From the IMG/VR virus record IMGVR_UViG_2609460059_000002: 10,715 bases of DNA; one strand, 5' to 3'. The DNA comes from a virus (lineage: Duplodnaviria > Heunggongvirae > Uroviricota > Caudoviricetes). Below the pieces are notes generated by a model, which did no database searches, was not told the DNA's origin, and worked only from the letters and a program-made list of their open reading frames with translations. Shown here piece by piece: positions 1-10,715 of the stretch; the first letter of the stretch is position 1, and each line of letters opens with the position of its first letter. A program made the position numbers and the translations under genes.

Positions 1-291
1 ATGCTGCTGTTCTACCTGGAAGCGGCGTCCAGCGGGCTGGCTGGCGGTGCGCTGGGATGTATTGCCGGGTGGGGGCTGGCGAAAGCGATTGGCGTCATGC
101 TCTTCGACGCGCCGCTTAATTTTGCCTGGATTGTGGTGCCGTGCGTACTGGTGATTGCGGTACTGATTGCGTTGATCGGCACCTGGTTCCCGGCCCGGCG
201 GATTGCCCGGCTGGTCTGTATGGAGTTTCTTTTTTCTTTATACTCTCTTCACGGTGTTTTTTATACTGGTGTTAAATGGTATGGGATATGA
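1..291 (+). CDS. 3'-terminal fragment of an FtsX-family ABC-transporter permease gene (start lies upstream of the window); recognisable sequence ends near 216, and the open frame then runs on to 291 through unrelated AT-rich DNA
   Basis: Translation shows hydrophobic TM segments followed by the FtsX-type C-terminal motif IGTWFPARRIARL. The usual final residues after this motif are absent and replaced by low-complexity F/L/S/Y-rich sequence. Composition drops sharply from GC-rich to AT-rich at about 217-222. Confidence 0.45.
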   Translation: MLLFYLEAASSGLAGGALGCIAGWGLAKAIGVMLFDAPLNFAWIVVPCVLVIAVLIALIGTWFPARRIARLVCMEFLFSLYSLHGVFYTGVKWYGI

Positions 292-481
292 TTTTCTTAC
301 ATCATTTGCAACAGTGGCTGCATGTATTAATAATATGGGATTAGGTTTTGGGGCTACTGCATCGTCATTCGGAGTGCTTAATGACATTGCAAAATATTTA
401 ATGTGCATAGCTATGATTCTTGGTCGCCTTGAAATTTATCCTGTTATTATATTGTTTTCAGGTTTTTTTTGGCGCTCCTAA
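221..481 (+). pseudogene. 5'-truncated remnant of a TrkG/TrkH-like potassium uptake protein gene (C-terminal ~70-85 codons only)
   Basis: Frame-2 translation ends with ...NNMGLGFGATASSFGVLNDIAKYLMCIAMILGRLEIYPVIILFSGFFWRS, which from memory matches the conserved TrkH/TrkG C-terminus (GRLE...FWR end). There is no plausible N-terminal region or start for a ~480 aa transporter; the track start at 203 is a TTG inside the permease fragment. Confidence 0.5.
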
Positions 482-567
482 TATATGGCTGATTTATAAT
501 TGTGAGTTTAATATTATATTGACTCACTCATTGATCCAATACCTAACTTTACCAGCAACACCTCCGC

Positions 568-591
568 CCCCAGTAGCACTGGCTGCTGGGG
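568..591 (+). promoter_or_regulatory. GC-rich hairpin (CCCCAG-N12-CTGGGG) followed by a T-rich tract, about 30 nt upstream of the ParB-like gene start; possible terminator/attenuator or 5'-UTR structure
   Basis: Perfect 6-bp inverted repeat seen directly in the sequence (568-573 / 586-591), then tgcgTTTTATT. Confidence 0.3.
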
Positions 592-618
592 TGCGTTTTA
601 TTCATAAAGCAAGGCTGT

Positions 619-1410
619 ATGAGCGAGAAATTGAAGATCGTCTATCGCCCTTTACAAGAACTGTCTCCGTATGCACACAACGCCAGGACACACAGCCCTG
701 AGCAGGTGGCACAACTGGTAGAAAGCATTAAGCAATTCGGCTGGACTAATCCGGTGCTGATTGATGAAAAGGGCGAAATTATTGCTGGTCACGGTCGCGT
801 TATGGCGGCTGAAGTGCTCAAAATGGATTCCATTCCGGTCATCGTTCTGTCTGGTTTGATGGATGATCAGAAAAAGGCGTACCGCCTGGCAGATAATCGC
901 CTGCCGATGAATGCTGGCTGGGATGAAGATCTGTTACGGATGGAGCTGTCGGACCTAATCAATGCTGATTTTGATGTCTCCCTGACAGGCTTCAGCCCGA
1001 CAGAAATTGATGAACTGTTGACGGATGTTTTGCCCGGTACAGAAAATGAGGAGGAGCCGTATACGACGAAAATTGATACGCCTGTTTATGAGCCGTCGGG
1101 CGGTAAACCGGATATCAGTGAACTGTACGACGATACGAAAACTCAGGAGCTGATCAGCCGGATACGTTCGGCGTCTCTTGAGCCTGATATTGAGAAATTC
1201 CTCCTGTGTGCGGCAGAACGTCACACGGTGTTTAATTTCAGCAGAATTGCGGACTATTACGCTCACGCCCCCGCTGAAATTCAGTGTTTTTTCGAGGAGT
1301 CGGCGCTGGTGATCATTGATTATCAGCAGGCTATTGAAAATGGATTTGTCCGGATGACGCAGCGCATGGTGGAGATCATGCATGGTGGTGAGGAGGAGGA
1401 ATATGCGTGA
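619..1410 (+). CDS. ParB/Srx-fold (ParB N-terminal nuclease-like domain) protein, 263 aa, with a C-terminal region of unknown function and an acidic tail
   Basis: ATG at 619 with AAGG 4 nt upstream. The N-terminal ~110 aa carry the ParB-N signature layout (...LIDEKGEIIAGHGRVMAAEVL..., conserved G-x-x-R-x-x-A arginine motif). Stop TGA at 1408-1410 overlaps the next gene's start. Confidence 0.8.
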   Translation: MSEKLKIVYRPLQELSPYAHNARTHSPEQVAQLVESIKQFGWTNPVLIDEKGEIIAGHGRVMAAEVLKMDSIPVIVLSGLMDDQKKAYRLADNRLPMNAGWDEDLLRMELSDLINADFDVSLTGFSPTEIDELLTDVLPGTENEEEPYTTKIDTPVYEPSGGKPDISELYDDTKTQELISRIRSASLEPDIEKFLLCAAERHTVFNFSRIADYYAHAPAEIQCFFEESALVIIDYQQAIENGFVRMTQRMVEIMHGGEEEEYA

Positions 1411-2335
1411 TGATTTTTGCGCCTTTATTCTGACTCACGGGCGACCGGACAAAGTTCTGACTTACCGGACGTTGCGTCGTGCTGGCTATACCGGGAAAAT
1501 TTTTATCGTTGTTGATGATGAAGATAAGACACGGCATCAGTACATGGCTGAATTTGGTGAACAGGTGCTGGTGTTTTCCAAAGCCGATATCGCCAGTCGT
1601 TTTGACGAAGCCGATAATTTCGGTGACCGCCGCTCAATTTTTTACGCCCGTAATGCCTGTTTCGACCTGGCAAAACTGGTCGGGTGTAAATACTTCATTC
1701 AGCTCGATGATGATTATCACGAGTTCCAGTTTCGGGTGGATCGCAACTATGACCAGGCCTATTTTCCGATAAGGAAACTGGATGCGATCCTTTCTGAAAT
1801 GCTGGCGTACTACGAATCAATACCTGCTCTTTCCATCGCTATGTCGCAGGGCGGGGATTTTCTTGGTGACAATGGCGGCCATGCTTCGTGGGTAAAACGC
1901 AAGGCAATGAACAGCTTTATCTGTTCGGTTGACCGACCGTTCTCATTCATGGGGCGCATTAACGAGGATGTGAATACGTACACGAATCTCGGTCGCCGTG
2001 GTGAATTGTTTATGACGATCGGTGCTGTCCAGTTAGGGCAGAAACAGACGCAGAAAAACAGCGGCGGAATGACCGAGCTGTATCTGGATTCCGGAACCTA
2101 CGTTAAAAGTTTTTACTCCGTCATGTATGCGCCGTCGTGCGTAAAAATCTCACTGATGGGAGCCAGCCATAAACGCATTCACCATCAGGTCACCTGGAAC
2201 AACGCTGCAGTAAAAATCCTTCACGAAAAATACAGGAAGAAGACACCCTGCATATCAATAGGGGTGACAAATGATTCCGTATTCGAAAGTCGAGTCTCTG
2301 GCAGCGTGCCGGATGACTGCACAACAAATCGCTGA
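1403..2335 (+). CDS. Hypothetical protein with GT-A-fold glycosyltransferase-like motifs (310 aa); candidate nucleotide-sugar transferase, possibly DNA-modifying
   Basis: ATG at 1403 is preceded by GAGGAGGAGG and overlaps the upstream stop in ATGCGTGA, indicating translational coupling. The N-terminus FILTHGRPDKVLTYRTL...KIFIVVDDED resembles the first beta-alpha-beta of GT2-type enzymes. A DXD-like motif FIQLDDDYHEF lies at nt 1706-1714. The track start at 1382 lacks an RBS. Confidence 0.55.
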   Translation: MRDDFCAFILTHGRPDKVLTYRTLRRAGYTGKIFIVVDDEDKTRHQYMAEFGEQVLVFSKADIASRFDEADNFGDRRSIFYARNACFDLAKLVGCKYFIQLDDDYHEFQFRVDRNYDQAYFPIRKLDAILSEMLAYYESIPALSIAMSQGGDFLGDNGGHASWVKRKAMNSFICSVDRPFSFMGRINEDVNTYTNLGRRGELFMTIGAVQLGQKQTQKNSGGMTELYLDSGTYVKSFYSVMYAPSCVKISLMGASHKRIHHQVTWNNAAVKILHEKYRKKTPCISIGVTNDSVFESRVSGSVPDDCTTNR

Positions 2336-2522
2336 CGTTCTGGATGTTGATCTGAACCGACTGAAAGAAAATCGGGAAGCAATGACAGATTTTTATGCGG
2401 CCATCCGTAAGGGCAGAGCGAAAGGTGAAGCCGAGTTACGGGCGGCATTGTTTAAGCTTGCCAGAAAAGGGGATGCCTTTGCTCTGCGCGAACTACTCAG
2501 GGTGGATAAAAATCAGGACTAA
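2271..2522 (+). CDS. Small (83 aa) putative helix-turn-helix DNA-binding protein immediately upstream of terS; possible packaging accessory or regulatory protein
   Basis: ATG at 2271 with GGGGTGA upstream. Contains an HTH-like segment MTAQQIADVLDVDLNRLKE followed by a basic helix. Stops at TAA 2520-2522, 3 nt before the terS ATG. Overlaps the 3' end of the upstream gene by 65 nt, so the start is uncertain (alternative ATG at 2313). Confidence 0.5.
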   Translation: MIPYSKVESLAACRMTAQQIADVLDVDLNRLKENREAMTDFYAAIRKGRAKGEAELRAALFKLARKGDAFALRELLRVDKNQD

Positions 2523-2525
2523 CTG

Positions 2526-3620
2526 ATGAGCAGACCGGACTGGGGGGCGTTGCAGCAGGAGTATATTGCTGAATACACCCGCTCCGGTATATCTCCGGTG
2601 GCATGGTGTGAAGCAAGGGGACTGAATTACGCAACAGCCCGTCGTTACATCAAAAAACCTCCGAAAAATGCGCAGACAGAAATGCGCAAAACTGCGCAAA
2701 AAAGTGCGCAGAAAAAATCTGCGCAGACTGCACAAAAGCGGAACGAAAAATCTCAGGAAAAAAAGCCAGTATTCGATGCGGGCCTGAATGAGGGCGACGC
2801 GGAGGAATTTTCGTTCTGTCCCGATGAATTCGGCATTTCTGACCAGCAGGCTAAGTTTGCGATGCTTGTTGCTCAGGGGAAAAAGCCGACAGAGGCGTAC
2901 CGACTAGCCGGTTATGAGGGGCAAGGTGCGACAGCTAACAGCAACGCCAGTCGTATGCTTAGAAATGCCAGGGTTTTTCGCGCTATCAGCTACTTCCGCA
3001 ATCAGTACCAGAAACGCTATACCGCAGACCTGGATTTACTGGTGAGTCAGTTGATGGCCATTGTCCTGGCCGACCCCAATCAGCTTGCACAATTTCGCCG
3101 TGTTAACTGCCGTTATTGCTGGGGCGAGAATCATCTCTACCAGTGGCGCGATATAGCAGAATTCGACAAGGCAGCGGCGCAGGCTTCCAGAGATGGCAAA
3201 CCCGAACCGGAATATGGAGGCCTCGGCTTTGTTGATAACGCCATACCCAATCCGGACTGCCCGAAGTGCTGCGGTGAGGGAACGGGACAGCTTTATATGG
3301 CTGATACCACTCTGCTTGATGGGGATGCGCGGCAATTATATGCAGGGGCAAAACTCGGAAAATTCGGCGTTGAGATCCTGCTGGAGGATAAGGCTGCCGC
3401 CCGGCGTGAATTGTTGCGTTTGCTTTCTGCTGGTGGGGCTTTATGTGCAGATAAGCGGCTACAGGAACTGGAAATTGAACGGCGCAGAATGGAAAACCAG
3501 AAGCTGCGCAAAGAGATCGAAACGGTGGAAGATAATGAACATCCCCAGCCTGTGGCGATCAATATTAATGTGGTTGATGCCAGAGTAAGGAGTGATGAAG
3601 ATGATCTCTCCGACGCTTAA
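2526..3620 (+). CDS. terS: Terminase small subunit (unusually long, 364 aa): N-terminal HTH, A/Q/K-rich linker, terminase-small-subunit-type DNA-binding domain, Cys4-type zinc-ribbon-like motif, C-terminal coiled coil
   Basis: The N-terminus MSRPDWGALQQEYIAEYTRSGISPVAWCEARGLNYATARRYI is HTH-like. The internal segment FCPDEFGISDQQAKFAMLVAQGKKPTEAYRLAGYEG...SRMLRNARV matches the conserved phage small-terminase domain as I recall it. Sits directly upstream of, and overlaps, the large terminase gene. Confidence 0.8.
   Translation: MSRPDWGALQQEYIAEYTRSGISPVAWCEARGLNYATARRYIKKPPKNAQTEMRKTAQKSAQKKSAQTAQKRNEKSQEKKPVFDAGLNEGDAEEFSFCPDEFGISDQQAKFAMLVAQGKKPTEAYRLAGYEGQGATANSNASRMLRNARVFRAISYFRNQYQKRYTADLDLLVSQLMAIVLADPNQLAQFRRVNCRYCWGENHLYQWRDIAEFDKAAAQASRDGKPEPEYGGLGFVDNAIPNPDCPKCCGEGTGQLYMADTTLLDGDARQLYAGAKLGKFGVEILLEDKAAARRELLRLLSAGGALCADKRLQELEIERRRMENQKLRKEIETVEDNEHPQPVAININVVDARVRSDEDDLSDA
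2669..2725 (+). repeat. Cluster of five copies of the palindromic hexamer TGCGCA spaced 10-15 bp apart inside terS (encodes the A-Q-K-rich linker); candidate pac-type recognition repeats
   Basis: TGCGCA at 2669, 2683, 2693, 2705 and 2720, each embedded in A-rich context (aaTGCGCAgac, aaTGCGCAaaa, cTGCGCAaaaa, gTGCGCAgaaa, cTGCGCAgac). Confidence 0.5.
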
Positions 3621-4902
3621 TGTGCCTCAGGCGCGATTTCTTTCAATGCCCCATAAATTTAAAGCCTATATTGCTGGTTTTGGCTCGGGCAAAACATGGG
3701 TTGGGTGTGGCGGCATATGCAAGGGGATTTGGGAGCATCCAGGTATAAATCAGGGATATTTTGCGCCAACGTATCCCCAAATTCGCGATATTTTTTACCC
3801 TACAGTGGAAGAAGTTGCTGCTGACTGGGGATTGAACGTAAAAATTAATGAGGGAAATAAAGAGGTTCACTTTTATTACGGACGCCAGTATCGGGGAACC
3901 ACTATCTGCAGATCGATGGAGAAGCCACAAACGATCGTCGGTTTCAAAATTGGTAATGCGCTGGTGGATGAACTGGACATTTTGCCGAAGGAAAAAGCCA
4001 GAACGGCGTGGCGCAAGATAATTGCGCGTATGCGTTATAAGATTGATGGACTTCGCAACGGTATTGACGTTACAACCACGCCGGAAGGATTCAAATTTGT
4101 CTACGAGCAGTTTGTTAAAGCCGTGCGTGAAAAAACAGAGCTGGCCTCACTGTATGGTCTGGTGCAGGCATCTACTTTCGATAATGAAAAGAACCTGCCA
4201 GCAGATTACATTCCTTCGCTTCTTGAATCATACCCTCCAGAGCTGATTAAAGCCTATCTTCGAGGACAGTTTACTAACCTGACAAGTGGTACTGTTTACC
4301 ATCAGTTTGACCGGAAACTGAATAATTGCGAAGAAGTGGAGCAGCCAGGGGAGCCGATTTATATTGGGATGGATTTTAACGTTGGAAAGATGGCGGGGAT
4401 CGTCCATGTGCTGCGTTTGGGGCTTCCATGTGCGGTAACTGAAATCATCAATGCCTACGATACGCCGGATATGATCCGCATCATTAAAGAACGCTTCTGG
4501 CTGTATGACGGGAATGATTACCGGAAAGTGAGGGAGATTTATATTTATCCAGATGCTTCCGGAGATTCCAGAAAATCAAGTAACGCAAGTACGACGGATA
4601 TAGCCCAGCTTAAGCAGGCTGGTTTTAACGTTGTGGTGAACAGCTCGAACCCGCCAGTAAAAGATCGCGTTAACTCAATGAATGCAATGTTCTGCAATGC
4701 CAATGGTGAGCGTCGCTATAAAGTTAATGTGAAGCGTTGTCCGGTATATGCCGAATCTCTGGAGCAACAGGTCTGGGATGATAAGGGGGAGCCTGATAAA
4801 AAATCTGGCAATGATCACCCGAATGATGCCGGAGGTTATTTCATCGTTAAGCAATTCCCTATTGTCAAACCGACCGGAAGAGTCACATCACTTCGGATTT
4901 AA
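3601..4902 (+). CDS. terL: Terminase large subunit (ATPase/nuclease)
   Basis: Walker A-like motif AGFGSGKTW near the N-terminus; size about 433 aa. TAAGGAG at 3586-3592 gives the best spacing for ATG 3601 (in-frame alternatives GTG 3592 and ATG 3595). Overlaps the terS 3' end by 20 nt. Stop TAA 4900-4902. Confidence 0.88.
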   Translation: MISPTLNVPQARFLSMPHKFKAYIAGFGSGKTWVGCGGICKGIWEHPGINQGYFAPTYPQIRDIFYPTVEEVAADWGLNVKINEGNKEVHFYYGRQYRGTTICRSMEKPQTIVGFKIGNALVDELDILPKEKARTAWRKIIARMRYKIDGLRNGIDVTTTPEGFKFVYEQFVKAVREKTELASLYGLVQASTFDNEKNLPADYIPSLLESYPPELIKAYLRGQFTNLTSGTVYHQFDRKLNNCEEVEQPGEPIYIGMDFNVGKMAGIVHVLRLGLPCAVTEIINAYDTPDMIRIIKERFWLYDGNDYRKVREIYIYPDASGDSRKSSNASTTDIAQLKQAGFNVVVNSSNPPVKDRVNSMNAMFCNANGERRYKVNVKRCPVYAESLEQQVWDDKGEPDKKSGNDHPNDAGGYFIVKQFPIVKPTGRVTSLRI

Positions 4903-4904
4903 TT

Positions 4905-6311
4905 ATGGCTGATATATCAACACCCAACCTCGACTATAACGATATGCTGGAGGCGTGGGATATTAACGACGCATTGATGGGCGGTACGCTTGAAATGCGC
5001 AGGCAGGGGGAAAATTATCTCCCCAAATGGCCTAATGAAGATGAAGACGCTTATAAAAAACGCCTGTCTGTGGCTACGCTACTTCCTGTGTATGAAGAAA
5101 GCATCAAACAAAATATTGGGCGCATATTTGCAGAGCCGACAGTATTGAGTGAGGAAACGCCGGAAAAAATCAGGGAATATGCAGAAAATATCGACATGGA
5201 GGGGAGCCGACTGGATGTGTGGGCGCAGCAATTTTTCAGTCTCGCATTTCAGTATGGTGTGGCACATGCGCTGGTGGACTATCCACGAACGGATATGAAA
5301 GAGATTCGGACAAAAGCCGATGAAAACGCGGCCGGTGGTCGCCCGTACGTTACGATGCTGAATCCACGCCAGGTTATTGGATGGAAATCGAAAGTTGAAA
5401 AAGGGAAAGTTGTTCTCACTGATTTGCGTATAAAAGAGGTCATCATTATTGATGGTGATGATTTCGGGCAGAAGAAGGTGGAGCAGATCCGCCATATTAT
5501 GCCCCGTCGAGTTGAAATTTATCGACGCAGCGAAGGTACTAATGGCGAATCTGTCTGGACGCTTCATGAGTCATGGAATACCAGCCGTGATGATATTCCT
5601 CTGGTAACACTGTATACGAAGAAAACAGGGTTTATGCGTGGTACACCGCCATTGCTTAATCTTGGCTTGCTGAATATCAAGCACTGGCAAAGCCAGAGCG
5701 AGCAGGACAATATTCTTCATGTTGCCCGCGTTCCATTGCTGGTGGCCTACGGGCTGGACAGGAATGAAGAACTGACGGTTGGTGCATCCACCGCTACGAT
5801 TTTTGAGGACAGAACAAAAAATGGCCTCGAATATGTTGAACATAGTGGCGCAGCGATAGAATCTGGCGAAACATCACTTGAGAAGCTGGAAAATCAGATG
5901 CGTCATGCCGGCGCTAAACTTCTGCGGGCTGAAAATACATCCACCAAATCTGTTGATCAGACTAATGAAGAGCGGATGCAGGAACACTCGCCGCTTTATA
6001 CAATGGCGAACTCCCTCGAAGATGCCCTCGATAATATTCTCCAGATAATGGCGGAATGGAGCGGAGAGAGTTGCGGTGGCAATGTGGATGTGCGCACTGA
6101 ACTGGATGTATCTGCCCAGGTGTTTGACTCATCCTCCGCGCTGGCTGTTCAGTCATTGCGTCAGGGCGGTGATATACGTCAGATTGATGCGGTTCGGGTG
6201 TTGCAGGCGTTGAAATTTATCGATCAGGATTCCCGTCCAGAGGAAGTGATCGATGAATTAAAAAATCAGAGTGTAATGCTGATGGAAATCAATGATGCAA
6301 ACCGTGAATGA
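4905..6311 (+). CDS. Portal protein (468 aa)
   Basis: Canonical position between the large terminase and the Mu F-like head morphogenesis gene, with typical portal size. ATG is 2 nt after the terL stop (TAATTATG). No motif-level confirmation is possible by eye. Confidence 0.7.
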   Translation: MADISTPNLDYNDMLEAWDINDALMGGTLEMRRQGENYLPKWPNEDEDAYKKRLSVATLLPVYEESIKQNIGRIFAEPTVLSEETPEKIREYAENIDMEGSRLDVWAQQFFSLAFQYGVAHALVDYPRTDMKEIRTKADENAAGGRPYVTMLNPRQVIGWKSKVEKGKVVLTDLRIKEVIIIDGDDFGQKKVEQIRHIMPRRVEIYRRSEGTNGESVWTLHESWNTSRDDIPLVTLYTKKTGFMRGTPPLLNLGLLNIKHWQSQSEQDNILHVARVPLLVAYGLDRNEELTVGASTATIFEDRTKNGLEYVEHSGAAIESGETSLEKLENQMRHAGAKLLRAENTSTKSVDQTNEERMQEHSPLYTMANSLEDALDNILQIMAEWSGESCGGNVDVRTELDVSAQVFDSSSALAVQSLRQGGDIRQIDAVRVLQALKFIDQDSRPEEVIDELKNQSVMLMEINDANRE

Positions 6312-7407
6312 ACGGCTGCGTGATGAATCAATTGCTCATGCAGTCTGGATATCCCGCTATAGCACTGGTGTGGCTGCCAGAATGGTGAAAATACTGAATG
6401 ACAGCGATGCGGAGCTTACAGCTCGCCTGCTGGTAGCACTGGACAGCCTCGATCCTGGTAGTTTTACCGTTACGCGCCTGGAGTCACTTCTGGCGAGTGT
6501 CAGAGAGGTTAACCGCGCTGCTATTAACAGCATGTTTACCAGTCTCTCCGGAGAGCTGAACGAGCTGGCAATTTATGAGGCTGGTTATCAGTTAAGTCTG
6601 TTTGATTCTCTGCTACCTGATTTTGTTGCTGATGTTCACCCTCTGGTTGGTATCTCTTCTGATGCACTTTACGCCGCTGCAATGGCGCGACCATTCCAGG
6701 GACGACTGCTCAGTGAGTGGGCCTCAGATCTTGAGGCGGATCGGCTCAGACGCATAACAAATACGGTGCGTCAGGGTTTTTTGCTGGGGGATACCAATGA
6801 GCAGATCGCAAGAAAAATTCGGGGACATGTCAGTAAGGGATTTCAGGATGGTGCATTGCAGATGAGCCGGGCTAATGCGGCCAGCATTGCAAAAACAGCG
6901 GTTGGACATCTTGCTGCTACTGCTCGTGAGAGTTTTGCACGCGCGAATAATGATTTGATTAAGGGTAAGCAATGGTTATCAACGCTTGATAATCGTACTA
7001 CGCCACAATGTCGAATCAGGGATCGCCTCAAATATACGCTGGATAATAAACCTGTAGGTCACAGCGTGCCTTATTTGCAGGGGCCGGGAAAAATTCATTT
7101 CTGCTGCCGCTCAACGGAAACGTTCATTCTGAAATCAGCGAAGGAACTGGGTATTGATGTTCGTGATATTTCCCCGGTTGAGCGGGCCAGCATGGATGGC
7201 GTGGTGGCCGGAGATACAACCTACAGGGAATGGTTTTTGCGTCAGCCTTACACCAGACAAAAACAGATTGTGGGGGAAACCCGGGCAAAGCTGATTCGGG
7301 ATGGTGGTATGTCGCCAGATGAATTTTACACCGATAAAGGCGAATGGCTGACGCTGAAGCAACTCCGTGAGCGTGATGCACAGGTATTCAGAAAAGCAGG
7401 GATTTAA
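6292..7407 (+). CDS. Phage head morphogenesis protein, Mu F / SPP1 gp7 family (minor head protein)
   Basis: Contains the family signature W-x-S/T-x-x-D-x-R-T-x-P-x-C as WLSTLDNRTTPQCRIRDRL. Overlaps the portal 3' end by 20 nt. Stop TAA 7405-7407. Confidence 0.78.
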   Translation: MMQTVNERLRDESIAHAVWISRYSTGVAARMVKILNDSDAELTARLLVALDSLDPGSFTVTRLESLLASVREVNRAAINSMFTSLSGELNELAIYEAGYQLSLFDSLLPDFVADVHPLVGISSDALYAAAMARPFQGRLLSEWASDLEADRLRRITNTVRQGFLLGDTNEQIARKIRGHVSKGFQDGALQMSRANAASIAKTAVGHLAATARESFARANNDLIKGKQWLSTLDNRTTPQCRIRDRLKYTLDNKPVGHSVPYLQGPGKIHFCCRSTETFILKSAKELGIDVRDISPVERASMDGVVAGDTTYREWFLRQPYTRQKQIVGETRAKLIRDGGMSPDEFYTDKGEWLTLKQLRERDAQVFRKAGI

Positions 7408-7426
7408 ATAAATCATTTATTACAAC

Positions 7427-7453
7427 AGGCTACCTTCGGGTGGCCTTTTTTAT
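7427..7453 (+). terminator. Intrinsic-terminator-like hairpin with UUCG tetraloop and U-tract, between the Mu F-like gene and the scaffold gene
   Basis: aGGCTACC-TTCG-GGTGGCCt is an 8-bp stem including one G-U pair, loop TTCG, followed by TTTTTTATT; it starts 20 nt after the stop at 7407. Confidence 0.55.
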
Positions 7454-7511
7454 TGCTGCGATCCGGATGGTGAGCAGCGTAACTGTCAGAAGACTTAAAC
7501 CAGGTACTAAT

Positions 7512-8276
7512 ATGAAACTGAAAACGGTCGAGATTAACGGAAAACAATACGCAGAAATTGATACTGCTGGCCTGCCAGTCTATGTGCACGACGATGGTAA
7601 AGAAATCGGCTTCGATGCACCGCTGGCGACAAAAAAAATTACAGAGCTTAATGGCGAGGCAAAAAATCATCGCCTGGCTAAAGAAGCTGCAGAGGAAAAA
7701 CTGGCTAAGTTTGCCGCTATCGAAGACCCGAAGAAGGCGATTGAGGCACTGGAAATGCTGTCAAAAATCGACCAGAAAAAGCTGATCGATGCGGGACAGG
7801 TTGACCAGGTTAAGGCAGAAATTACGAAAAATTTTCAGCAGCAATTAGATGAAGAAAAGCAACACTCTCAGATGCTGGAGAAGCAGCTTTACGATTCTAT
7901 GATTGGCGGTAGTTTTGCGGGTTCAAAATATATTGCCGATAAAATTGCGATCCCGGCAGATTTATTACAAGCCCGCTTCGGACAGGCATTCAAAGTGGAA
8001 GAAGGGAAGATCGTTGCTTATGACGCTTCCGGCAACAAAATTTATTCCCGCGCGAAGCCAGGAGAACTGGCGCAGTTTGATGAGGCGCTGGAGTTCCTCG
8101 TCGAAAATTACCCTCAGAAAGACTACATCCTGAAAGCCAGTGGCAACAATGGCTGCGGCTCCCGTCCGACACAGCATGATATTGGTCAGAAAACGATGAA
8201 ACGCTCTGCTTTTGATGCACTGGATGTTGCCGGTAAGCAAAACGCACTGAAAGACGGTATCACAATCGTTGATTAA
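7512..8276 (+). CDS. Putative scaffolding protein (254 aa), charged and predicted coiled-coil rich
   Basis: Lies between the Mu F-like and major capsid genes. E/K/Q/A-rich helical sequence (EAKNHRLAKEAAEEKLAKFAAIEDPKKAIEALEMLSKIDQKKLIDAGQVDQVKAEITKNFQQQLDEEKQ). ATG 7512 is preferred over the track's GTG 7440, which lies inside the terminator hairpin. Confidence 0.6.
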   Translation: MKLKTVEINGKQYAEIDTAGLPVYVHDDGKEIGFDAPLATKKITELNGEAKNHRLAKEAAEEKLAKFAAIEDPKKAIEALEMLSKIDQKKLIDAGQVDQVKAEITKNFQQQLDEEKQHSQMLEKQLYDSMIGGSFAGSKYIADKIAIPADLLQARFGQAFKVEEGKIVAYDASGNKIYSRAKPGELAQFDEALEFLVENYPQKDYILKASGNNGCGSRPTQHDIGQKTMKRSAFDALDVAGKQNALKDGITIVD

Positions 8277-8374
8277 TACATTTGCCAGCTTCCGGATGGG
8301 AACTGGTGTCAGGGCTGGATAGCTCACTACTCAATCAATTCACAATTACGCAAATTTTTAAGGAATATTTAATT

Positions 8375-9514
8375 ATGGCTGGAAATACCCTGACCGGGTT
8401 GATCCCGACTATTTACACCGCCCTGGATGTTGTATCCCGTGAGCAGGTAGGTTTTATCCCTGCGGTAGCAAAAAACGCAAAAGCTGACGCCGCAGCAAAA
8501 GATCAGACGGTAACCGCGCCAGTTGCGCCTGAGGCGAGAACCGAAGATATCGTACCGGGGCCGTCAGCTCCGAATACCGGTGATCAAAATATTGGCACTG
8601 TTGATGTGAAAATTACTAAATCCAAAATGGCACCGGTTAAATGGAATGGTGAAGAACAACTGGCTCTTGGCCCTTCAGGGACTTACAACACCATTCTGGC
8701 TGATCAGTTCAAGCATGCTTTTCGCGCCCTTGCAAACGAGGTTGAGGCTGATCTTGGTGCGTTGTATTTCGGTGCTTCCCGCGCCGTGGGAACCGCAGGG
8801 ACAACGCCGTTTGGTGTTAAAGATGATCTTTCTGATGCTGCTCTGGCTCGTCAGGTTCTGGAGGATAACGGCGCACCGACAACCGATCTGCAGATGGTGC
8901 TTGGCTCCACTGCCATTGCTAATTTGCGCGGAAAACAGTCTGTACTGTTTAAAGTGAATGAATCCGGCACTGAACAGCTACTGCGTGAGGGCGTGTTGGG
9001 GCGTCTGGAGGGATTCAATATTCACAGTTCGGCAGGTGTAAAACGAGCGCCAAAGGTTGCTGCAACTGGTTATCTCGTGAATGGCGAGAAAAAAGAAGGC
9101 GATGTTCTTATTTCCATTGATACTGGTTCGGGGAGTATTTCTGCAGGTCAGATTGTTACGTTCGTTGGCGATCCGAATCAGTATGTTGTGGCAGCAGCGA
9201 CCAGCAATCTGATTACTCTTGCAGCGCCCGGACTGCGTCAGGATCTGGCCGATGATACTGCAATCACAGTTGTTGGCTCCTTTACTGCAAATATGGCGTT
9301 TGATCGCAACGCGTTTCTGCTGGCATCCCGTACTCCGGCAATGCCGGAAGGTGGCGATAATGCTGATGATGTAATGAATGTTACGGACCCGATTTCAGGG
9401 ATTACGTTCCAGATTGCACTGTATCGTCAGTATCGCCAGGTGCGCTATGAAGTTGGACTGGCATGGGGTGTTTCATCAGTGAAGCCGGCACATGGTTGTC
9501 TGATTCTTGGTTAA
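8375..9514 (+). CDS. Major capsid protein (379 aa)
   Basis: Position after the scaffold gene and typical size. ATG 8375 has AAGGA 11 nt upstream; the track's 8282 start is a TTG with no RBS. Followed immediately by a terminator-like hairpin, as is common after capsid genes. Confidence 0.7.
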   Translation: MAGNTLTGLIPTIYTALDVVSREQVGFIPAVAKNAKADAAAKDQTVTAPVAPEARTEDIVPGPSAPNTGDQNIGTVDVKITKSKMAPVKWNGEEQLALGPSGTYNTILADQFKHAFRALANEVEADLGALYFGASRAVGTAGTTPFGVKDDLSDAALARQVLEDNGAPTTDLQMVLGSTAIANLRGKQSVLFKVNESGTEQLLREGVLGRLEGFNIHSSAGVKRAPKVAATGYLVNGEKKEGDVLISIDTGSGSISAGQIVTFVGDPNQYVVAAATSNLITLAAPGLRQDLADDTAITVVGSFTANMAFDRNAFLLASRTPAMPEGGDNADDVMNVTDPISGITFQIALYRQYRQVRYEVGLAWGVSSVKPAHGCLILG

Positions 9515-9523
9515 ACATTCAAA

Positions 9524-9547
9524 CGGGGCTTCGGCCCCATTTTTAAT
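9524..9547 (+). terminator. Intrinsic-terminator-like hairpin (GGGGC-TTCG-GCCCC) with U-tract, directly after the major capsid gene
   Basis: 5-bp G/C stem at 9525-9529 / 9534-9538, TTCG tetraloop, then ATTTTTAAT; begins 10 nt after the capsid stop. Confidence 0.55.
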
Positions 9548-9556
9548 GGAGGGCAT

Positions 9557-9733
9557 ATGGCCGGATTAACTAAAGAGCAAAGAGCACAGCGTGAAGCCGC
9601 ACAAAAAACGCAAATTGAGTTAGTGGTTATGGTGACCGATTATCAGATGTTTCCCGGCGCACCAACTATCGCTAATGTTCATCCTGATGAAGTTGACAAC
9701 TGGAAAGCTATGGGCTGGAAAACTCAGGAGTAA
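9557..9733 (+). CDS. Small hypothetical protein (58 aa), not in the supplied ORF track; possible head accessory protein
   Basis: ATG 9557 is preceded by GGAGGG; translation MAGLTKEQRAQREAAQKTQIELVVMVTDYQMFPGAPTIANVHPDEVDNWKAMGWKTQE; stop TAA 9731-9733. It fills the gap between the capsid terminator and the next gene, whose ATG is 3 nt downstream. Confidence 0.5.
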   Translation: MAGLTKEQRAQREAAQKTQIELVVMVTDYQMFPGAPTIANVHPDEVDNWKAMGWKTQE

Positions 9734-9736
9734 CAC

Positions 9737-10132
9737 ATGATCACTTACGTGACCTGTGATGACGTTGATAATGCGTTTGGGAACGCCTGGACGAGTGAGA
9801 ACGCTAAAAATAAAGCTGTTTTAATGGCTAATGCCTGGCTTAATGGCTTCAACCTGAAAATTAACCCATCCCGTATTCCGGAAGAGGTAAAACTTGCGGG
9901 AGCATATGCAGCCAGAATTGCCTCATTCGGTAAGTTGTTTCAGCAGAAAAATGATTCTGGCGTTGTTATCAGTAAAGCCGTGTCGGCTGACGGGGTCAGT
10001 GTATCGAAATCATTTGCTGAGTTGCCAGCAAACAGCACTGCATTGCTTGAACCCGATTTACAGCTTGCGATAGCACTGCTGAAACCGTACGGACTTAGTC
10101 GCTCACAAGTCAGGGTTGTGAGGGGGGGATAA
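9737..10132 (+). CDS. Putative head-tail connector / head completion protein (131 aa)
   Basis: Position downstream of the capsid gene in an SPP1/HK97-like gene order; its stop overlaps the next start (TAATG). Assignment is by synteny only. Confidence 0.5.
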   Translation: MITYVTCDDVDNAFGNAWTSENAKNKAVLMANAWLNGFNLKINPSRIPEEVKLAGAYAARIASFGKLFQQKNDSGVVISKAVSADGVSVSKSFAELPANSTALLEPDLQLAIALLKPYGLSRSQVRVVRGG

Positions 10133-10515
10133 TGGGGCTTCGTGAAGAGATTCAGTCAGAGGTTGCCGCTGCTTTTGATGAGGATTTAGCGGACGCCGTG
10201 AGTGATTTTTCTGGTTCTTACGTTACGCACCGGCACTGGGATCCTGTGACGGAAACTGGCGGCGAATCCACCGCAATCTATACCGGGCGAGGCGTGTTGA
10301 CACGTTATAAGCTGGGCAGAATTGATGGGATTAATATTTTGCATGGTGACCTTAAATTAACCGCTCTGGTATGCGAGGTTACGGATAAACCCGCTGTCGA
10401 CCATATTATTGAGATTTATGATCCTGTATCAAGGCAGTTACAACGATACGAGGTAATTACAGCGAGTGTAGATCCTTCCGCATCAGTTTACTCTATCCAG
10501 TTAAGGAGAGCGTAA
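10132..10515 (+). CDS. Putative head-tail joining (adaptor/stopper-like) structural protein (127 aa)
   Basis: Translationally coupled to the upstream gene (ATG within TAATG at 10130-10134) and to the downstream gene. Assignment is by synteny only. Confidence 0.45.
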   Translation: MGLREEIQSEVAAAFDEDLADAVSDFSGSYVTHRHWDPVTETGGESTAIYTGRGVLTRYKLGRIDGINILHGDLKLTALVCEVTDKPAVDHIIEIYDPVSRQLQRYEVITASVDPSASVYSIQLRRA

Positions 10516-10715
10516 ATGGCAAAGGCATGGGATATAGAACCGTCAATATTTGCCGGGATGATTGAGGAAGATGTGGGGCTGAAGATTCGCTACATCGCTA
10601 TGCAGATTCTTACTGCTATTGATATTGCTGCTCCGGTTGATACCGGACGTTTCAGAAATAACAACCTGGTGTCGTTACAGCATCCCGATTTTGGTATATC
10701 TGATAACGTGGATCC
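10516..10715 (+). CDS. 5' part of an HK97 gp10-family head-tail joining / tail completion protein (CDS continues beyond the window)
   Basis: ATG 10516 follows AAGGAGAG and lies directly after the upstream TAA. Translation MAKAWDIEPSIFAGMIEEDVGLKIRYIAMQILTAIDIAAPVDTGRFRNN contains the P-x-D-T-G-x-(L/F)-R motif typical of the HK97 gp10 family as I recall it. Confidence 0.55.
   Translation, partial: MAKAWDIEPSIFAGMIEEDVGLKIRYIAMQILTAIDIAAPVDTGRFRNNNLVSLQHPDFGISDNVD

Follow-up and report, generated by a model that had tools for sequence, protein, structure and literature searches.

We have analyzed the joint that lies near the left end of a 10,715-bp stretch of DNA (hereafter the window). The window is the entire draft contig JFFL01000027.1 of E. 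coli JA23 (GCA_000599765.2), and its position 1 is the first base of that contig. At G213 a fragment of a plasmid ABC permease gene passes directly into the 3′ end of trkG, a gene of Rac-type prophages. The conclusion that emerges is that this joint is very probably an artefact of the draft short-read assembly, i.e., a chimeric read or a mis-join at the end of the contig, and not part of the structure of the JA23 genome. Both halves are identified by sequence identity, and the joint between them is sharp, lies 213 nt from the contig end and is unique.

A preliminary description of this DNA had read the same region as a recombination scar. It preferred a deletion of the left arm of the prophage and offered an assembly or chimeric junction as a fallback. 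Its anatomy of the region is retained here, and it is the fallback that we favor; the preferred deletion is not sustained.

E. coli JA23 is a bloodstream isolate that was sequenced as MiSeq 2x250 bp paired reads and assembled with the A5 pipeline. Its coverage of 28x was the lowest among the six strains pooled on one MiSeq run (PMC4271156). Within the A5 pipeline the contig builder IDBA "occasionally" yields misassembled contigs, the contigs are "scaffolded and extended" by SSPACE, and the QC step places scaffold breaks near a false adjacency, not exactly at it (PMC3441570).

Results

The left part of the window is a fragment of a plasmid permease gene

The features on either side of the joint are as follows.

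1 to 213, + strand: fragment of an FtsX/MacB-type ABC transporter permease gene (WP_000964653.1) of F-type plasmids; 213/213 identity, Pfam FtsX
1 to 291, + strand: chimeric ORF of 96 aa (71 from the permease and 25 from trkG read out of frame); RefSeq WP_032272687.1, "FtsX-like permease family protein"
212 to 214, no strand: breakpoint, placed by three-way alignment with the plasmid and E. coli 042 trkG
213 to 481, + strand: 3′ end of trkG, a Rac-type prophage gene; 100% match to E. coli 042, APEC O1, DLL7555 and others
482 to 618, + strand: native trkG-ynaK intergenic spacer; contiguous 100% match to Rac-type prophages
619 to 1410, + strand: ynaK-type gene with a ParB/Srx N-terminal domain; first intact gene of the contig

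The first 213 nt of the window correspond to codons 348-418 of a permease gene of 427 codons, with 100% identity, and begin at the contig end. The same 213/213 nt are found in pSK1144 and in >830 other records. Among E. coli genomes the segment is present in 838 records at 852 places, 843 of them on plasmids and nine chromosomal, and in PLSDB it is carried by 836 plasmids, mostly conjugative. The encoded residues 1-70 match Pfam FtsX (PF02687, profile positions 44-117 of 120) with 34.9 bits against a cut-off of 25.5. The profile match and the nucleotide identity together bear out the FtsX-like permease fragment of the preliminary description.

The permease gene is incomplete, with only codons 348-418 lying in the window. 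Its N-terminus is absent because position 1 is the end of the contig; the MacB_PCD domain (native residues 18-232) is missing, as are the last nine residues. The match ends 30 nt (nine codons plus the stop) short of the native end of the gene, and the native C-terminus reads ...PARRIARLYPVEVLYGR, also given as ...RIARLYPVEVLYGR, before that stop. Frame 1 of the window reads MLLFYLEAASS...WFPARRIARL (71 residues), and then continues through 25 out-of-frame residues, VCMEFLFSLYSLHGVFYTGVKWYGI, to a stop codon at 289-291. The earlier observation that the permease frame loses its terminal residues after the motif PARRIARL and runs on as junk thus corresponds to nine residues lost and 25 read out of frame.

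The first base of the contig begins an in-frame ATG (window 1-3), which is Met348 of the permease. We treat this as a coincidence, and not as the start of a gene. Because the contig starts on an in-frame ATG, the fragment mimics a complete 96-aa gene for ORF finders and annotation pipelines. In an exact look-up, the 96-aa chimeric protein WP_032272687.1 is recorded from JFFL01000027.1 only.

The native permease coding sequence is found at 2960-4243 of the plasmid locus (L001), as the fourth gene of an 8-kb operon. The operon encodes an FTR1-family iron permease, a P19-like iron transporter, an Fe-S protein, two FtsX/MacB-type ABC permeases, an ABC ATPase and a TlpA-like thioredoxin, and resembles the Ftr1-P19-associated gene cluster of Campylobacter. 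The stub in the window belongs to the first of the two ABC permease genes of this iron-uptake operon. While that gene is 100% identical to window 1-213, the window holds 71 of its 427 codons and none of the neighboring operon genes. The outer end of the stub sits mid-operon in single-copy plasmid sequence, and a search of the plasmid operon revealed no repeat or IS at either the contig start or the breakpoint.

In other draft or metagenome assemblies we found three proteins (P0168, P0169 and P0173) in which the C-terminal part of the permease is accompanied by unrelated N-terminal sequence or by frameshifts. Such aberrant or truncated copies of the permease, which come from noise in assembly or gene calling at the ends of contigs, are thus no rarity in public databases.

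The right part of the window is a Rac-type prophage segment

In the window, the 3′ end of trkG agrees at 269/269 nt with the gene in E. coli 042 and others, and the first 1,189 nt are not present. Frame 2 (215-481) comprises 88 codons plus a stop, ends in FFWRS, and is identical to the C-terminus of TrkG. It matches Pfam TrkH (PF02386) with 83.5 bits over profile positions 406-500 of 502. There is no full-length trkG with a start codon, since 88 of the 485 codons are present and the first 397 are all absent. The TrkG/TrkH-like C-terminal fragment that had been recognized in another frame is thereby confirmed, by the reading in frame 2, the profile match and the identity to trkG, and its assignment as a passenger gene of Rac-type prophages is upheld by the 100% match to these elements.

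The ynaK-type gene that lies beyond the spacer opens a normal prophage packaging and head module running to 10715, so that the gene order of the window is trkG 3′ end, spacer, ynaK, terminase, portal and head genes. Window 213-700, containing the end of trkG, the spacer and the start of ynaK, is 100% identical in E. coli 042, APEC O1, DLL7555 and many others, and over window 213-10715 the identity to Rac-type prophages is 99.1-100%. In its content and order window 213-10715 is thus the same as the trkG-ynaK segment of the Rac prophage (K-12 Rac, with 042, APEC O1 and DLL7555 as fuller relatives), but in contrast to those relatives it keeps only the last 269 nt of trkG.

Four complete chromosomes show just one or two differences from the window over 213-10715. 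Comparison with intact related prophages, which the preliminary description had put forward as a check, gives a clear result. In relatives with 99.99-100% identity to window 213-10715, trkG is intact and the left arm, lysis genes included, is retained. Their trkG spans the full 485 aa (1,458 nt; in DLL7555 at 3406931-3408388 of CP186931), with the holin, lysozyme and Rz genes for lysis upstream of it.

Between the trkG stop (481) and the ynaK start (619) there is a terminator-like hairpin CCCCAGTAGCACTGGCTGCTGGGG (568-591), followed by a T-run TGCGTTTTAT, the two together occupying window 568-601. The hairpin is native to Rac-type prophages; it was picked out by a consensus scan only, in which the site count was no higher than in shuffled sequence.

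Within window 619-2335 the ynaK-type gene (263 aa) overlaps by 8 nt a gene of 310 aa, the product of which matches Pfam PF20691 "TAGT" (TET-associated glycosyltransferase). The two genes are directly upstream of the small terminase gene, and may be a DNA-modification pair inside the Rac-type packaging module. For DLL7555 (L017, 9407-9664) RefSeq lists ynaK as a pseudogene of 258 nt; the DNA is identical to that of the intact 792-nt ORF in the window. The YnaK of K-12 is itself truncated, and the pseudogene annotation in DLL7555 would follow if K-12 YnaK had served as the naming reference.

The sole difference between the window and the closest complete genome, DLL7555, is at position 8716, which is T in the window and G in DLL7555. 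The position lies in the P22-type major capsid gene, and the variant 379-aa protein is unique to JA23. T8716 is also present in the independent Logan contig SRR1824516_609, and its occurrence in both assemblies indicates that it is a real strain marker.

The joint is sharp and lies within one read of the contig end

The base composition changes abruptly across the joint, from a GC fraction of 0.60-0.66 at window 1-225 to one of 0.33-0.39 at 201-475. The abrupt switch from GC-rich to AT-rich DNA at a sharp junction, as previously described, is therefore real and is seen in both the GC fractions and the three-way alignment. It had been placed at 217-222, but the alignment puts the true breakpoint at G213. 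The window tracks the plasmid gene through G213 and trkG from G213, with at most one base common to both parents, and the break is thus located either between 212 and 213 or between 213 and 214. The same alignment reveals no IS end, att-like site, useful microhomology or inserted extra sequence at the joint. The permease and trkG fragments share the same orientation, and both are cleanly truncated.

The distance of 213 nt from the joint to the contig end is less than one 250-nt read. Continuation beyond one read length is not found on both sides of the joint, the left side extending for 213 nt, with the contig end lying in unique sequence. The joint therefore has two of the properties of an assembly chimera, lying within one read of a contig terminus, with each half identical to a separate, intact locus.

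Both ends of the contig lie in single-copy DNA

The Logan contig SRR1824516_609 (2.8 kb, from a k=31 assembly) is identical to window 7906-10676, and since it includes the strain-specific T8716 it comes from the same strain. It stops 39 nt short of the right end of the window (10676, compared with 10715). The right end of the draft contig falls mid-gene, and the last 213 nt (10503-10715) are single-copy in 732/732 genomes that carry them. This suggests that the right contig end was set by a lack of read coverage there rather than by a repeat.

In the nearest complete genomes the 5′ portion of trkG that the window lacks is single-copy, and a repeat boundary inside trkG is therefore excluded as the cause of the contig break. 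We also considered the 213-nt stub as a (k-1) graph overlap mirrored at the other end of the contig, but obtained no support for it, the last 213 nt, single-copy in the 732 genomes, having no repeat signature. With both contig ends and the 5′ part of trkG being single-copy, and with the Logan contig stopping nearby, we deduce that the breaks reflect thin data rather than repeats.

The joint is absent from the collections searched

The joint was not found in any of 5,426 complete E. coli genomes, including the 711 that carry at least 80% of the window. The joint was also absent from PLSDB, INPHARED, IMG/VR, the GTDB representative genomes and the JGI metagenomes.

The full-length fusion protein was absent from ~15 billion proteins, a collection that apparently does not include the PacBio assembly of JA23 (JMJB00000000). 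The native permease and native TrkG proteins are each found on at least 1000 contigs of the same collection. The capsid variant is recorded only in the Illumina contig and the Logan contig, from which JMJB00000000 seems to lie outside the protein collection, and the negative protein look-ups are accordingly silent on that assembly. A homology search with the out-of-frame tail peptide gave no carrier among the representatives of 90% clusters, which alone were visible, and the peptide is recorded for JFFL01000027.1 only. The protein P0017, a cluster mate of the chimeric protein, was considered as a second carrier of the joint and rejected, as it has the native C-terminus and no joint. For the YnaK protein, exact look-up listed 2,711 blocks, of which the 24 with the longest contigs were read.

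A real, strain-specific recombination would be unique too, and uniqueness alone is therefore no exclusion of it. Thus the uniqueness of the joint does not discriminate against a strain-specific real event.

Discussion

A number of observations lead us to favor an artefact of assembly. The foreign stub, at 213 nt, is shorter than a 250-nt read, and is located at the very end of the contig. It terminates in a single-copy operon, where a real joint should have assembled onward for kilobases. Both halves are 100% identical to abundant intact loci that are normally on different replicons, the parents have at most 1 bp in common, and there is no IS end. The joint is absent from all the collections searched, and genomes that are only one or two bases apart from the window over 10.5 kb keep an intact trkG and left arm. 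Lastly, the A5 paper itself admits misassemblies, extension by SSPACE and inexact QC breaks (PMC3441570). The window, judged here from the assembled sequence, is similar to chimeric or mis-joined contig ends in short-read drafts (IDBA/SSPACE/A5QC, PMC3441570), in that two unrelated loci, each intact elsewhere, are brought together with no homology, the foreign part being shorter than one read, at a contig terminus and in a low-coverage assembly.

We infer a mechanism based on chimeric reads and extension. The contig would be a normal stretch of Rac-type prophage with its true left end inside trkG, probably at a thin spot of the 28x data set. To this end would have been attached a foreign stub of less than one read, from an F-type plasmid of the strain or the library. 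The likely route is by one or a few chimeric library fragments, arising for example from blunt fragment-to-fragment ligation in a ligation-based library, a process that would leave no microhomology. Contig building by IDBA, or the SSPACE "extend" step of A5, might then have incorporated the chimeric reads; alternatively, the stub may be the residue of an imprecise A5 QC break at a mis-join.

During assembly with a plain de Bruijn graph, a thinly covered chimeric path would normally be pruned when the true path competing with it is well covered. For the artefact to arise, coverage must therefore have failed locally in trkG, or a permissive extension step must have been satisfied with very few reads, and we infer that one of the two happened.

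Could the joint nevertheless be real? It might have arisen in JA23 by a strain-specific illegitimate recombination between the iron-uptake/ABC operon of an F plasmid and a Rac-type prophage, through plasmid integration, duplication or translocation. We consider this unlikely. In its favor, the sequence sits in a deposited assembly that passed A5 QC, and a trkG path with good coverage would otherwise be expected to prevail in the graph. If the intact plasmid permease were also present there would be a two-copy repeat and the contig would stop shortly past the joint, and such a two-copy permease region would explain a contig end some k-1 bases beyond it. The permease segment has nine chromosomal places, and AR_0013 carries the operon in ynbD. 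In the chromosome of AR_0013 (L018, 3856998-3897210) a large F-plasmid segment containing pemIK, tetA, the mer operon, the iron-uptake/ABC operon, traX and finO is inserted in ynbD, between IS3/IS629 and group II intron copies. This IS-mediated integration shows that the iron-uptake operon can be chromosomal, but it is bounded by IS3/IS629 and is not beside a Rac prophage, whereas the joint in the window contains no IS sequence, exhibits no homology and has at most 1 bp in common between its parents. Moreover, there is no Rac prophage in the ttcA-uspF region of AR_0013 (the Rac attachment region, L019), which is empty, and we have therefore rejected AR_0013 as a precedent for an integrated plasmid beside Rac. 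A real event is further opposed by the lack of the joint in any other genome, plasmid, phage or metagenome contig searched, by the intact loci of the closest relatives, by a stub of less than one read, and by the location of both contig ends in single-copy DNA, which indicates data-driven breaks. Were the joint real, which we doubt, a Rac-type prophage (or the chromosome at that place) would have become fused to the F-plasmid iron-uptake operon independently of both homology and IS elements.

Deletion of the left arm of the prophage, from the integrase to the lysis genes together with the 5′ part of trkG, and extending into a neighboring chromosomal FtsX-type permease gene to leave a fixed scar, is highly improbable. 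The common orientation and clean truncation of the two gene fragments are in keeping with such an event, as is a window without left-arm genes. However, the permease is plasmid-borne in 843/852 places, where it is contained within an 8-kb operon that does not adjoin Rac, and the chromosomal copy that was examined is IS-integrated with no Rac at ttcA. It is thus not the flanking chromosomal gene that it had been supposed to be, and the two parents do not normally share a replicon in an arrangement that a deletion could join. The preliminary description had also taken the absence of integrase, regulatory, replication and lysis genes to imply a deletion. The window is a complete contig that ends at this point, so that the missing upstream genes are uninformative, and near-identical relatives keep the left arm. 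The scar is in none of the 711 of 5,426 complete genomes carrying most of the window, nor was the joint found elsewhere in the searches. Neither premise of the deletion therefore stands: the supposed chromosomal neighbor is a plasmid gene, and the absence of upstream genes says nothing in a window that is a whole contig. We attach the lowest probability, close to negligible, to a cross-sample or low-frequency template chimera, in which the plasmid half came from a different library in the pool, or from recombinant DNA that was rare in the culture, such that the joint exists in a DNA molecule but not as the consensus structure of the genome. Six strains were indeed pooled on one MiSeq run, and the plasmid operon is common in clinical E. 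coli, but this is a sub-case of the artefact that we prefer, is indistinguishable from it with the available data, and creates no separate biological feature.

Both fragments in the window belong to genes that were known before, and the genome most probably lacks the joint; the biological weight of the finding is correspondingly small. Its significance is rather for the quality of data. RefSeq and UniRef now list the chimeric 96-aa product as a singleton "FtsX-like permease family protein" (WP_032272687.1), and scans that treat contig-terminal joints as rearrangements will yield false "scars". Where a joint lies closer than one read length to the end of a contig, supporting reads should be required before a rearrangement is called. 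A true joint in JA23 would be of modest interest, as an example from one strain of illegitimate recombination between plasmid and prophage; it would show a plasmid-prophage hybrid, or a phage in the act of acquiring plasmid cargo beside its packaging module, at the site of the passenger gene trkG.
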